DNA of 64,000 nucleotides, from positions 160,001-224,000 of the forward strand of contig CAVSSM010000002.1 of the NCBI GenBank assembly GCA_963730605.1, written 5' to 3'. The translations under genes and the position numbers were made by a program. Positions 43,799 through 47,405 of the stretch are shown here, one piece after another; position 1 is the first letter of the stretch; each line of letters begins with the position of its first letter. Source of the stretch: an uncultured Chlamydiae bacterium. GTDB lineage: Bacteria; Chlamydiota; Chlamydiia; Chlamydiales; SM23-39. The notes beneath the pieces were generated by a model that saw only the letters and a program-made list of their open reading frames with translations, searched no databases and had not been told where the DNA came from.

Positions 43799-44610
43799 CT
43801 TTCATTCGGAGCGCGCTTCTTCTCCTTAAAGAAGAGCCGTTCATCCTCGCCTCGCCCGAAGATGCCGCCTATTTCCGCTTGCGGCATACGCATATGAAGG
43901 CGGCTCTTCACCCCAAAAACGATGCGTTTCTGGGGACCCCGGCGTTGCCTCTAGCGCCCATTGTGAACTCGCCGCCTCCGTCCAAGACGAGCGCGCAAAT
44001 CAAGACCGAGAAGCCGGTTCAAGAAGTTGCAAAGCCTAAAATGGAAGAGCCGCTGCCGGGGTCCCCAGAAACGCATCGTTTTTGGGGTGAAGAGCCGCTG
44101 CAAAAGCAAAGGGAGGGTGGCAAGCGCGAGGGATCCCATTTTTCTGCCATTTTAGAAAAAATCGCCCCAGAGCTTCCGCTCCTCGATGCGATTCCCGATG
44201 ACAAGACCGCAAAACAAATCGCAAACCGCTGGAAGACGAAAAACCAATCGGCGCCCATCTCGATCCTCTCGAGCGGAGAATTGCCCCAGCATAAGGCTCT
44301 TCTTGAGGAGATCGCAGTAGCCCTCGATGTGTACTTTGGAGAAGCGCGCCTGATCGTAGGAGATCCGATCGAAAAAGAAAAAGAGTGGAAAACGTTTCTC
44401 TCCGTCGGTAGCCTCAAGCTGATCGTCATTTGCGATTCGACTCTTTGGCAACTCCACAACCTACGGCAGTTCTACAAAGAGACCCCAGCCACCGGAGTCC
44501 GGACGCTGGGAGACGTGCCGGTCTTCCTTCTCCCAGACCTTTCCCTCTATCTGAAAGATCCTCTCCTCAAGCGCTCTCTTTGGAAAGCTCTATGCTCCAG
44601 ACTTTCGTAG
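43771..44610 (+). CDS. Conserved chlamydial protein upstream of priA, carrying two 33-bp hairpin insertions
   Basis: C-terminal YLKDPLLKRSLW; synteny with priA. Confidence 0.75.
   Translation: MSFPISDALTFIRSALLLLKEEPFILASPEDAAYFRLRHTHMKAALHPKNDAFLGTPALPLAPIVNSPPPSKTSAQIKTEKPVQEVAKPKMEEPLPGSPETHRFWGEEPLQKQREGGKREGSHFSAILEKIAPELPLLDAIPDDKTAKQIANRWKTKNQSAPISILSSGELPQHKALLEEIAVALDVYFGEARLIVGDPIEKEKEWKTFLSVGSLKLIVICDSTLWQLHNLRQFYKETPATGVRTLGDVPVFLLPDLSLYLKDPLLKRSLWKALCSRLS
43910..43942 (-). repeat. 33-bp hairpin repeat, in frame
   Basis: Exact reverse complement of 44056-44088. Confidence 0.85.
44056..44088 (+). repeat. 33-bp hairpin repeat flanked by a 12-bp direct repeat
   Basis: GAAGAGCCGCTG|CCGGGGTCCCCAGAAACGCATCGTTTTTGGGGT|GAAGAGCCGCTG. 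Confidence 0.88.
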
Positions 44611-46841
44611 AGGTCCTCCTAGATCAAAATCTTGCGAAGCGGCTCGACTACGCGGTGCCAGAAGAGTGGGCATCCGAGATCGAGATCGGGATGCGGGTCG
44701 AGGTCCCCCTTAAAACTAAGGCGTTAAAAGCAACGGTGGTGAGGATTAAACAAGAATCTCTAGTACCAAACGTACGCCCGATCCTCCGCCTCCTCTCAAG
44801 CCAGTCTGAATTGACAGATGCCCAGTGGAAGCTCGCTCATTGGATGTCCCACTACTACGCCGCCCCTTTGCAGCGGGTGTTGAAATGCTTCATCCCCCCA
44901 AATGTCCGAAAAAACGTCAAAGCGAAGACCCAGATCTTCGTCTCCTTGAATGTGGCGAGGGGCAATGCTTTGAAGATTTGCGAGGTCCTCCGAAGAGAAA
45001 ATCCGGAAGAAGCGGCTGTATTGGAAGCGGTCTTACAAAGGAAAAGCTGTTTTGCGGCGGATCTCTCAAGGGAGCTGGGAGTTCCGATGAGCGCTATTGC
45101 CCGTCTCATGAAGAAAAAGATCCTTTCTTCAAAAAAGGCTCACCGAGAGGATGACATCCTCTTGGAAGAGGAATTTTTCAAAACGAAATCGAAATCACTC
45201 AATGTGGAACAAAAATCATGCTTTGATGCAGTCTCTGATTCTTTGTCAGGAAACCGTTTTGCCGCGCATCTCATCCACGGCGTGACCGGAAGCGGGAAAA
45301 CCGAAATCTACCTCCAGGCGATCACTCACGCGCTCGGGCAAAATAAAAGCGCCATCCTCTTAGTCCCCGAAATTTCTCTCACCTCTCAGACGCTTGCCCA
45401 TTTCCGCGCCCGTTTTTCTGAAAAAATCGCCATCCTCCACCACAAAAGAAGCCTAGGAGAACGGAGCTTAGCTTGGGAAAAGCTGAAATCCGGGGAGATC
45501 CGGATCGTCGTCGGCGCGAGATCGGCCATCTTCGCTCCCGCTCAAAATTTAGGCCTCATCATCGTAGATGAAGAACACGACAGCTCCTATAAACAGGGCG
45601 AAGAGGCCCCTTTCTACCATGCCCGCAACGTCGCCGTCATGCGCGCCCATTTGGAAAATGCCGTCGTTCTCCTCGGAAGCGCTACTCCATCTGTCGAATC
45701 GCGCTACAACGCCGAAATTGGCAAATACCGCCTCCATAAGATCGCCGCTCGCGCCACCTCCGCCCCTCTTCCCAAAGTCACTATCGTCGACATGAAAAAA
45801 GAACTCGAAAAAAGCGGCGGGTTCACCCATTTTTCCGAAGAGCTTTTGCAAGGGATCAAAGAGCGGTGCGATGCGGGAGAGCAAAGCCTCCTTTTTCTCA
45901 ACCGCCGCGGCTATCACCGGCTTCAAATCTGCAGCTCCTGCCGATCCGCCGTCAAATGCCCCCATTGCGACCTGGGGCTGACTTTCCATCGAGGCGAGAC
46001 CTCCGGGATCCCCAAAAAAGCATCGTTTTTGGGGGAGGGCCGCTTGCGGTGCCACCTTTGCGATTACCAGAGAGCGGCCCCGCGGGAGTGTCCCGCATGC
46101 GGGTCCTCGAACAGGCTCCAATTCAAAGGATTTGGGACGGAGCATGTGGAATGGTCGCTCCATGCCCTATTTCCCGATATCCGCACCCTCCGGATGGACC
46201 GGGACACAACGCAAAAAAAAGAGAGCCATGAAGAGATCTTCAAACAATTCCGCGCCCATAAAGCCGACGTGCTCATCGGCACTCAAATGATCGCGAAAGG
46301 CTTCCACTTCCCCTCGGTCACTCTCGTCGGCGTTCTTAATGCCGACGCCCCGCTCAGCATCCCCGATTTCCGCTCCGCCGAATCAGTCTTCCAACTCCTC
46401 ATCCAGGTGTCCGGGCGCTCCGGACGCTTGAACTTGCCGGGAGCTGTGATCCTCCAAACCTTCCTCCCCGACCACCCCGTCTTGAAGCTCGCCGCCGCCC
46501 AGGACTACGACGCCTTCTACAAAGCGGAAATCGAAGAGCGGCGCCTTTTCGGCTTTCCCCCCTTCGCCCACCTCGTAAAATGCCTTTTTTCCTCTCCCGA
46601 TCCCAAAGCCGCTGAGATGGCCGCAACCGAAGCTCATGCCGCCCTTGCCCAATCGCTTCCCCCGTTTGCCCAAGTCTTCCCTCCCGGCCCCTCCGGCCAT
46701 CCGAAAATCAAAGACCAATACAGGTTTCAGTTCCTCATCAAATCTCCCAAAATAGATCCATTAATCCCCATCTTGCAATCTATGCCAAAACTGAACGCTC
46801 AAATAAAAATTGATATAGATCCATTGTCAACATTTTTTTAA
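44592..46841 (+). CDS. priA: Primosomal protein N'
   Basis: GVTGSGKT, DEEH, GSATP, four CxxC motifs, GTQMIAKG. Confidence 0.96.
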   Translation: MLQTFVEVLLDQNLAKRLDYAVPEEWASEIEIGMRVEVPLKTKALKATVVRIKQESLVPNVRPILRLLSSQSELTDAQWKLAHWMSHYYAAPLQRVLKCFIPPNVRKNVKAKTQIFVSLNVARGNALKICEVLRRENPEEAAVLEAVLQRKSCFAADLSRELGVPMSAIARLMKKKILSSKKAHREDDILLEEEFFKTKSKSLNVEQKSCFDAVSDSLSGNRFAAHLIHGVTGSGKTEIYLQAITHALGQNKSAILLVPEISLTSQTLAHFRARFSEKIAILHHKRSLGERSLAWEKLKSGEIRIVVGARSAIFAPAQNLGLIIVDEEHDSSYKQGEEAPFYHARNVAVMRAHLENAVVLLGSATPSVESRYNAEIGKYRLHKIAARATSAPLPKVTIVDMKKELEKSGGFTHFSEELLQGIKERCDAGEQSLLFLNRRGYHRLQICSSCRSAVKCPHCDLGLTFHRGETSGIPKKASFLGEGRLRCHLCDYQRAAPRECPACGSSNRLQFKGFGTEHVEWSLHALFPDIRTLRMDRDTTQKKESHEEIFKQFRAHKADVLIGTQMIAKGFHFPSVTLVGVLNADAPLSIPDFRSAESVFQLLIQVSGRSGRLNLPGAVILQTFLPDHPVLKLAAAQDYDAFYKAEIEERRLFGFPPFAHLVKCLFSSPDPKAAEMAATEAHAALAQSLPPFAQVFPPGPSGHPKIKDQYRFQFLIKSPKIDPLIPILQSMPKLNAQIKIDIDPLSTFF
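46003..46035 (+). repeat. 33-bp hairpin repeat inside the priA Cys-rich region
   Basis: CCGGGATCCCCAAAAAAGCATCGTTTTTGGGGG, four differences from the 44056 copy. Confidence 0.8.
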
Positions 46842-46864
46842 TAATAAAATTTAAAACATAACAA

Positions 46865-47024
46865 CTCGACTTTGTACAATTTTTGGCGAGCAGATCCAGA
46901 GGAAGCGCTCTGCAATTTTTTTCTTTTTTTGCGAAATTCATAGCCGAAGGCACTATTTATGAGCAAAAAAAAAAGGGCCAGCGATTCTCTCGGAGATGCC
47001 GTCACAAAATTGTACAAAGTCGAG
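46865..47024. mobile_element. MITE family A, copy 3
   Basis: Same TIR; exact 5-bp TSD AACAA. Confidence 0.92.
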
Positions 47025-47037
47025 AACAACAGAATAC

Positions 47038-47160
47038 AGGAATGCCGTGAACGTTTTCCAATCTGTTCGTTAACTTGCACCATTCAGATCGGAAAACGGA
47101 AACGGAAACGGAAACGGAAACGGAAACGGAAACGGAAACGGAAACGTTCATGGCATTCCT
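47038..47160. mobile_element. Inverted-repeat element containing an (AAACGG)n microsatellite
   Basis: AGGAATGCCgTGAACGTTT versus reverse complement AGGAATGCCaTGAACGTTT; eight full units from 47094. Confidence 0.78.
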
Positions 47161-47206
47161 CTTGTGGGTAACGATCAGCTTCTTGGCCCATTTGGAAATC
47201 TCGATA

Positions 47207-47405
47207 TATACCGCTCGTGATTCAAAAATCGGTTCTGGCGACGGCCCACCCCAAAGACGATGCGTCTTCGTAGACCCCGGACCCGGCGCCGGCAAGGCCT
47301 GGCTCAAATTCAGGTCTGCTTCCCTTAGAAAAAGCTCGAACCCCCGAGCTTTTTCAAGTGTCCGCAGCCTTGCCATATTCCGATTTTTGAATCCCTCTCG
47401 GTATA
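47207..47405. mobile_element. ERIC-like TA-MITE containing a 33-bp hairpin (47248-47280)
   Basis: TATACCGctcgtGATTCAAAAATCGG versus reverse complement TATACCGagaggGATTCAAAAATCGG. Confidence 0.85.

Follow-up and report, generated by a model that had tools for sequence, protein, structure and literature searches.

The DNA studied here is a window of 64,000 nucleotides (G000:C2:160001-224000) from G000, a Chlamydiales-like metagenome-assembled genome (MAG) of 2.2 Mb that is 83% complete, and the subject is a very small hairpin repeat occurring in it. With high confidence, this hairpin is considered a real, independently inserting repeat family. It is defined by conserved ends and a free stem sequence, and many independent insertions were observed, some of which add peptides to the encoded proteins. 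An original prediction made from the letters of the window had proposed that peptide inserts are created by a mobile unit of very small size and constrained structure, and this is supported by the copy number and by orthologues lacking the peptides. It had missed that most copies ride as passengers in larger repeats of the MITE type (miniature inverted-repeat transposable elements) and that the family crosses phyla. Insertions were evaluated against G003, the closest relative of G000 (approximately 90% DNA identity; 1.27 of 1.7 Mb compared; 43 of 106 loci anchored). Contigs of G000 are named C1, C2 etc., and L-numbers denote loci compared from other genomes or viruses.

A profile scan detected 169 copies at 140 sites of G000 and none in the reversed genome used as control; the concern that few other copies exist was thus not borne out. 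The conserved core comprises 31 nt (GGGG-Y-CCCC, 17 variable bases and GGGG-T/A) and folds into an 11-bp stem with a 3-nt loop; the variable part of the stem measures 7–9 bp, and the hairpin is interpreted as selfish DNA that does not code by itself. The commonest unit measures 36 nt and is found with two types of ends, CC...TGGG and AA...AAAA, each giving 36 nt, and the net gains caused by single copies range from 26 to 51 nt; the predicted fixed length of 33 nt, or 11 codons, therefore had to be abandoned. Compensatory changes in the stem, also predicted, were corroborated in a set of 66 distinct variants, taken from viruses and other phyla as well as from chlamydiae. Since this set was selected by the ends only, the inner pairing represents a fair test, the related sequences within the set not being independent. 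Pairing was observed in 94.8% of the cells, all seven inner pairs change on both sides, and double-sided changes amount to 153 cells compared to 45 in shuffles (0 of 500 shuffles reach this value; slid controls 16–48). Moreover, the first inner pair is G.T in 97 and A.C in 3 of 236 distinct well-paired stems (312 collected). Therefore, either the structure is polar or it is the sequence that fixes the T preceding the last G-run.

Within the window, sequence matching located six copies at the predicted positions. The exact 33-mer occurs at 43910-43942 (minus strand) and 44056-44088 (plus strand), with 0 matches in 100 shuffles, and the copies at 46003 (plus), 47248 (minus) and 33437 (plus) differ from it by 4, 6 and 7 mismatches, respectively. 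The CCCC arm of the copy at 47248 is damaged; the copy at 33437 has the loop TAT and the arms GAAGATG/CATCTTT. The copies and their hosts are as follows:

18339..18357, minus strand: 5' half copy of 19 nt, intergenic
33289..33511, plus strand: TA-ended mosaic MITE of 223 bp, second subfamily
33437..33469, plus strand: passenger copy inside the 223-bp MITE
43756..44610, plus strand: host open reading frame (ORF) of 284 aa, a conserved chlamydial protein with both inserts in a length-variable, proline-rich linker
43905..43940, minus strand: free copy 1, a 36-nt insert relative to G003 made up of the 31-nt core plus 5 nt, antisense in the 284-aa ORF (LHPKNDAFLGTP)
44044..44100, plus strand: copy 2 with its 12-nt direct duplication, net gain of 45 nt as inferred from the duplication
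44056..44088, plus strand: free copy 2 (PGSPETHRFWG), older, common to G003 and the likely donor of copy 1
44592..46841, plus strand: host gene priA, 749 aa, with all eight zinc cysteines intact
45999..46037, plus strand: free copy 3 in PriA, a 13-codon insert (T470-E482) with the hairpin at 46003-46035
47207..47405, minus strand: TA-ended MITE of 199 bp, one end matching that of a 1121-bp IS630 element of G000 without any difference over 21 nt
47248..47280, minus strand: passenger copy, decayed, inside the 199-bp MITE

The three predicted peptides HPKNDAFLGTP, PGSPETHRFWG and SGIPKKASFLG are indeed in frame in the 284-aa ORF and PriA, and the predicted 12-nt flanking duplication was recovered (44044-44055 equals 44089-44100). 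The 284-aa ORF has no Pfam or NCBIfam match. No RNA dataset was listed among the public runs containing this DNA. Contigs of four public DNA runs contained no empty allele over positions 42900-47050, their cover being patchy and hence uninformative. Directly 3' of priA, a further inverted-repeat element at 46860-47030 matches many unrelated contigs and probably represents another MITE family, and tandem GGAAAC hexamers (47095-47146) lie between the two MITEs.

In PriA, whose named homologues are mostly from Chlamydiales, the spacer between the second and third CxxC motifs is 27 residues long in the query alone, 119 of the 120 proteins having 14 residues at this place. The insert is absent from 119 of 119 other homologues, including the nearest one (87% identical). 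It sits in the zinc-binding region and aligns just after residue 461 of the PriA chain 8fak_H (732 residues). The beta-hairpin of this region was proposed to act as an unwinding wedge (PMC10175261, PMC5778457), and the inserted loop may correspond to the tip of this pin. In the predicted model, residues 470–481 form a low-confidence coil between two strands (overall mean pLDDT of 83.7). Regarding the 284-aa protein, G003 lacks the 43910 copy and possesses the 44056 copy; nine metagenomic relatives (10 were found) have neither insert, and their linker is variable in length. The possibility, raised with the prediction, that orthologues contain the same peptides was thereby discounted for PriA and for the 43910 copy. 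The linker may represent an insertion-tolerant hot spot. An orthologue of the 284-aa protein (L586:3850-4100) appears to have a different MITE-type insert in the same linker.

Furthermore, the list of host proteins includes, besides PriA, MurC-Ddl, MurG, DnaX, PlsX, acetate kinase (AckA), NAD kinase, inositol monophosphatase (SuhB), an AMP-binding enzyme, TamB, an S9 peptidase and MsrB. In the latter (G000:C5:65876-66232; L476:831-1631), tandem expansion to ten 36-nt units resulted in a 120-residue linker of the (GAPEDASSLGKK) type between the hydrophobic N-terminus and the catalytic domain, of which the G003 MsrB has none. Among the clean coding events, 15 of 16 are multiples of three, with sizes of 33, 33, 36, 36, 36, 39, 39, 39, 42, 42, 48, 51, 78, 132 and 360 nt. 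This tally excludes locus 53 (decayed copy with ambiguous alignment), locus 13 (a replacement), loci 27, 39, 59 and 77 (hairpin in both genomes), L190 (just past a stop codon) and the 44056 copy (size inferred only). The sixteenth event is a 26-nt insert just after the tpiA start codon (C1:664482-664514, L475), which leaves the ATG out of frame as assembled and thus rules out that the copy supplies a new start codon; a downstream GTG could be used, or a homopolymer error could hide a 27th nucleotide. Non-coding sizes include 35 and 38 nt, and multiples of three make up 10 of 18 and 8 of 11 totals inferred from duplications in other phyla (among the matches listed). Since net gains vary, the originally assumed 11-codon unit does not explain why the frame is kept. 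Because coding events are in frame while non-coding ones often are not, selection is the likely filter that keeps coding inserts in frame, helped by the 36-nt mode, even though the five MITE-internal sizes likewise include four multiples of three, which speaks against frame selection. The peptides themselves probably represent near-neutral padding of loops and linkers.

Two lifestyles of the hairpin were observed in G000, where multicopy host repeats account for 94 sites (99 copies), the remaining 46 sites (70 copies) being free. Based on our own gene calls (genes of at least 120 aa), 26 of the 46 free sites are located in genes, 14 in sense and 12 in antisense orientation. Many of the host repeats are TA-ended mosaics of 120–600 bp. 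The prediction that terminal inverted repeats (TIRs) are missing is correct for the bare hairpin; of the five full copies in the window, however, two lie inside TIR-bounded MITEs (33289-33511 and 47207-47405). The 21 terminal bases of the 199-bp MITE are shared with the 1121-bp IS630 element, which is present in 14 equal-scoring copies, and IS630 matches in G000 total 29. For IS630-linked MITEs, RUP provides a precedent (PMC2229807), with which carriage by the MITE at 47207-47405 seems to be in line. At 18 of the 43 anchored loci, the whole host element is absent in G003. Moreover, at least five positions on MITE scaffolds were encountered both with and without the hairpin (net +35, +36, +39, +42 and +45 nt; an empty match was obtained for 45 of 80 flank types), and therefore the hairpin moves relative to its MITE hosts. 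In other phyla, it was found in unrelated host repeats. MITEs of G000 (e.g., C1:12688-13004 and C7:71570-71920) are mosaics of several other hairpin modules that are variably present, and such modules can replace the hairpin studied here at one MITE position.

In order of increasing distance, nine of 60 relatives besides G000 have at least five matches; all belong to the same family and include two of six congeners. The hairpin was not found in the other four congeners, three of which are 93–96% complete. Across 401 genomes of the phylum, multi-copy hairpins occur only in the family of G000; six matches in G341 were rejected, not being hairpin-like in appearance. Scanning GTDB by the ends alone yielded at least 126 stretches. 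Among the matches listed, 52 of the 80 titled ones originate from Acidobacteriota and 10 from Bacillota, single well-paired matches are from Nitrospirota, Bacteroidales, Chloroflexota, Actinomycetota and Alphaproteobacteria, and 112 of 129 are near-perfect hairpins with unrelated stems, as are 73 of 107 viral matches. Whole-genome counts reached 102 (Terriglobus), 36 (Eubacteriales), 33, 16 and 2, with reversed controls at 0; in Acidobacteriota and Clostridia, the same ends accompany unrelated, fully compensated stems at 16–102 copies per genome. Common ancestry across phyla is suggested because the ends, the stem length and the wobble position are shared, with convergence as the alternative. 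Since mutual pairing of the flanks was observed for 44 of the 112 GTDB hairpins (among the matches listed) compared to 16 in shuffles (viral 18 of 73 versus 10.7), many GTDB copies appear to sit in the loops of other hairpin repeats. Fourteen empty chlamydial sites showed no significant excess of pre-existing hairpins (p 0.13).

Concerning mobile genetic elements, a 134-kb viral contig (IMGVR_UViG_3300035696_000011) harbors at least 16 copies (L202-L206, L216, L237, L254, L261, L267, L268, L276), and the genes sampled on it encode two DNA methylases, an integrase and a PD-(D/E)XK nuclease. Pfam annotation of 38 of its 74 ORFs identified no transposase or reverse transcriptase (RT). In plasmids, blastn returned no match to the hairpin.

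Compared with published repeats, the hairpin works like the YPAL, SDR and RPE repeats but belongs to none of them (SDR and RPE were compared by description), because it lacks a defining feature of YPAL, SDR, RPE and REP in each case. With YPAL/RU-2 of Yersinia, it has in common the lack of TA ends, filled and empty sites, in-frame fusions and a mover that is not known, and it may also share the duplications of variable length (3–26 bp in YPAL) and the targets at or beside dyad symmetry (PMC2229807). However, YPAL/RU-2 measures approximately 168 bp and comes from Yersinia and Erwinia (PMC2229807), whereas the hairpin of 31–36 nt often inserts without duplication, extends across phyla and is recognised by its conserved ends, the stem being free. 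SDR repeats are 21–27 nt in size and cyanobacterial in range, and SDR4-6 are not known to have a transposase. The latter, described for Nostocaceae, are likewise very small mobile repeats inserting into other repeats, but SDR5 inserts precisely between the third and fourth base of HIP1 (PMC4390886, PMC3116915), whereas the hairpin has no fixed target or junction. The RPE of Rickettsia are also palindromic, selfish DNA that an intracellular-type bacterium reads in frame as part of conserved proteins, and are probably near-neutral; the RPE-1 type measures 105–146 bp and has TIRs (PMC2229807, PMC3733652), whereas the hairpin is a quarter of this size, has no TIR and is itself a passenger in RPE-like MITEs.

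The proposal of a REP-like or RPE-like unit consequently stands for its RPE-like behaviour and falls for REP membership, given that neither a GTAG/CGTC tag nor a tied Y1 gene was found. Like the GTAG/CGTC REPs, the hairpin is a stem-loop within the range of 20–40 nt, with stems of 5–13 bp, a short unpaired tag at the foot, clusters and intragenic copies (PMC3733652). In contrast to the REPs with their GTAG- or CGTC-type tetranucleotide, inverted dimers and RAYT (PMC3733652), its foot is GGGT/GGGC, its arrays run head to tail, and no flanked RAYT was found. IS630-linked MITEs of the RUP type resemble the carriers at 47207-47405 and, by their TA ends, at 33289-33511 (PMC2229807), but the hairpin has neither TIR nor TA and moves relative to these carriers. 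The GC clusters of yeast mitochondria are similarly GC-rich palindromes (32–42 nt) that proliferate, merge and undergo co-conversion of flanks, but they are organellar and have a short fixed AG target duplication (PMC4478555); one listed cluster has the GGGGTCCCC nonamer in common with the hairpin (PMC4478555), probably by coincidence. Rfam gave no match at gathering level over the window and none by E-value over 43000-48000 and ten foreign loci; Acido-Lenti-1 was dismissed as its seed sequences differ by eye (PMC2864571) and no Rfam match was obtained. No description of the family was found in the literature searched (subscription journals and bioRxiv supplements excepted), and the supplements of PMC3733652 could list related repeats. 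The family is apparently uncatalogued.

The junctions of the inserts provide information on how the hairpin spreads. They vary and comprise insertions without duplication, duplications of 8–13 nt, a net loss of 3 nt and half-copies. Relative to the empty G003 site, the insert at 43910 contains GAAGA in addition to the core. These five bases equal the 3' flank of its identical, inverted counterpart at a distance of 146 bp, and the microhomology between target and donor amounts to GCC at one of the joints and to GCCGC at the second. By analogy, donor flank plus microhomology would be the signature of a short template switch, a signature established in other systems. The copies at C1:245971 and C2:370438 have a common 10-nt 5' flank, which is mostly target sequence at the empty G003 site of C1:245971. 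Flanks are shared over at least 6 nt in 6 of 30 (5') and 7 of 30 (3') free copies versus approximately 3% in random DNA. Furthermore, free copies cluster locally, 20 of 45 sites being at most 2.5 kb apart (random mean of 4.2, maximum of 14 in 2000). Duplications of at least 5 nt accompany 18 of 112 GTDB hairpins (among the matches listed) and 11 of 73 viral ones, compared to 2.6 and 1.3 after shuffling, and are absent at most resolved G000/G003 junctions.

Because of the donor flank with microhomology at 43910, the local clustering and the flank sharing, templated copying by host enzymes is ranked first among the possible modes of spread, at an about evenly balanced level of confidence. A few matching bases would allow a nascent or broken end of DNA to pair with a copy already present; this end would be extended across the hairpin plus a variable stretch of flank and then rejoin its own template. 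Host replication or repair enzymes would perform the copying, and a factor nicking or binding the single-stranded hairpin may start the event. IS630 would move the MITEs, which multiply and disperse the hairpin, slippage would build the tandem arrays, and phages and MITEs would carry the hairpin between lineages. Purifying selection would remove frameshifting events from genes, helped by the 36-nt modal unit.

Several observations weigh against templated copying as outlined. The 43910 junction pair is the only one resolved for both microhomologies, the others having decayed at approximately 90% identity to G003. At locus 103, one gene has two inserts of exactly 36 nt that end identically and lack a duplication, as if cut precisely. 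Nor does plain template switching by the host predict that the ends and the first inner pair stay conserved across phyla; locus 103 and the conserved ends pose the main difficulties. The consensus ends themselves may account for some of the flank sharing, clustering could reflect insertion-tolerant genes, and the stems of neighbours are only modestly more alike (14.8 versus 13.1 of 17 nt). The multiples of three among MITE-internal sizes belong here as well. Within the 37-genome family, Ku leans to element-rich genomes (4 of 10 versus 3 of 27 others, p 0.07) and was not found in G000. In favour of templated copying, no tracking was observed in this family for Y1 (4/10 versus 13/27), RT (3/10 versus 7/27), IS630 (4/10 versus 10/27) or DUF559 (0/10 versus 1/27), such co-occurrence tests being weak since repeated insertion sequence genes drop from fragmented MAGs and kin are not independent.

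Clearly less probable, but still a possible explanation, is a REP-like substrate on which an HUH/Y1-type or other hairpin-cutting nuclease acts in trans, recognising the GGGT/GGGC foot and the wobble, excising approximately 36 nt and pasting them elsewhere. Strand polarity with a fixed wobble position, conserved ends with a free stem sequence, the two exact 36-nt inserts without duplication and the 36-nt array period are in line with such an enzyme, and REP families without known transposase exist (PMC3733652). On the other hand, no Y1 gene flanked by the hairpin was found: none of 30 Y1 loci in G000 and its chlamydial relatives has a hairpin, and across five genomes from other phyla a hairpin lies within 1.5 kb of 2 of 30 Y1 loci, on one side only, where a hand calculation from copy density gives approximately 0.8. 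Pfam annotation of 79 of 135 ORFs beside GTDB copies mostly returned housekeeping functions or no match, besides two tyrosine recombinases, and neither a transposase nor an RT. The carry-over of donor flank at 43910 also disagrees with excision and pasting, and the RAYT-like gene at L524:1165-2150 (G422) has its own, different repeats of GTAG type. One hairpin lies just downstream of that gene, and a variant lies inside one of its repeats. As a single case, an integron-type integrase (Phage_int_SAM_4; L112:1537-2400) ends 4 nt from a hairpin copy.

An RNA-mediated route, in which hairpin RNA is reverse-transcribed in trans by an RT of group II intron type and captured at breaks by microhomology, is considered unlikely. 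Polarity is compatible with G.U pairs, the variable duplications of at least 5 nt reported above would fit, and RTs of group II type repair breaks by microhomology (10.1101/2022.03.14.484287). In addition, G000 contains three identical intact group II introns at unrelated sites (G000:C1:286485-288420, C4:1-1936 and C8:29770-31705), a sign of recent spread. However, none of the three intron junctions is at a hairpin, which eliminated intron targeting to hairpins as a candidate, and RT is as scarce in element-rich genomes as given above and was not found in G422 and G423. The 43910 insert, inverted and at a distance of 146 bp from its donor, is more simply explained at the DNA level.

Very improbable is the view that the hairpin is not independently mobile and that free copies are debris of IS630-derived MITEs that were inserted and then mostly deleted. 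It could draw on the 99 of 169 copies in multicopy host repeats, the 18 of 43 anchored loci without whole host element in G003 and the MITE end matching IS630, but is largely refuted by the filled and empty positions in otherwise matching MITEs. Moreover, G000/G003 alignments revealed no TA or TIR remnant at free inserts, just 1 of the 45 free sites has a MITE-borne copy within 2.5 kb, compared to 6.5 expected, and hosts in other phyla are unrelated repeats. Finally, a regulatory element kept as terminator, RNA stability determinant or protein-binding site can hardly be maintained, since the stable 11-bp stem and the terminator-like T-runs following G422 copies are outweighed by random orientation in genes, absence from the four congeners mentioned, patchy site occupancy that differs between close relatives and an unrelated peptide in each frame.

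Three further regions of the window were recorded. At 38717-40753 (minus strand), a 678-aa protein joins a SucD-like N-terminus (only approximately 200 of 286 profile positions) to a long region that is unrelated and has a TPR-like domain at its end. Matches to ribonucleotide reductase alpha at 27063-30252 (plus strand) occur in separated stretches (approximately 30–165 and 504–758) and stop early, followed by an overlapping 303-aa ORF; this locus possibly represents an intein-like insert and a split gene. In this chlamydia-like genome, a tryptophan-pathway cluster at 49469-54437 (minus strand) encodes TrpF-TrpB and TrpD-TrpC fusions and DAHP synthase.

To our knowledge, the spread of bacterial repeats shorter than 50 nt is a long-open question, and most of them have no known enzyme. 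The hairpin family offers many filled and empty sites, a junction that names its donor and cultured Acidobacteriota hosts, which makes the mechanism directly testable. If a dedicated hairpin-inserting enzyme exists, it would constitute a new, very small insertion system. For the host, the results indicate that de novo protein sequence arises in core genes over short times, and that the zinc-domain hairpin of PriA, the proposed unwinding wedge, is naturally lengthened. Tentatively, and with more doubt than belief, a single ancient hairpin family of 31–36 nt is proposed for Chlamydiota, Acidobacteriota, Bacillota and their viruses, with the G/C-run ends and a polar wobble pair as its sole defining features. 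It would be a pure selfish template without a transposase of its own, copied by host replication and repair, parasitising mobile repeats and serving as a standing source of protein loops and repeat domains. If so, the unwinding pin of PriA, longer by 13 residues, and the 120-residue repeat linker of MsrB would be examples of its products.

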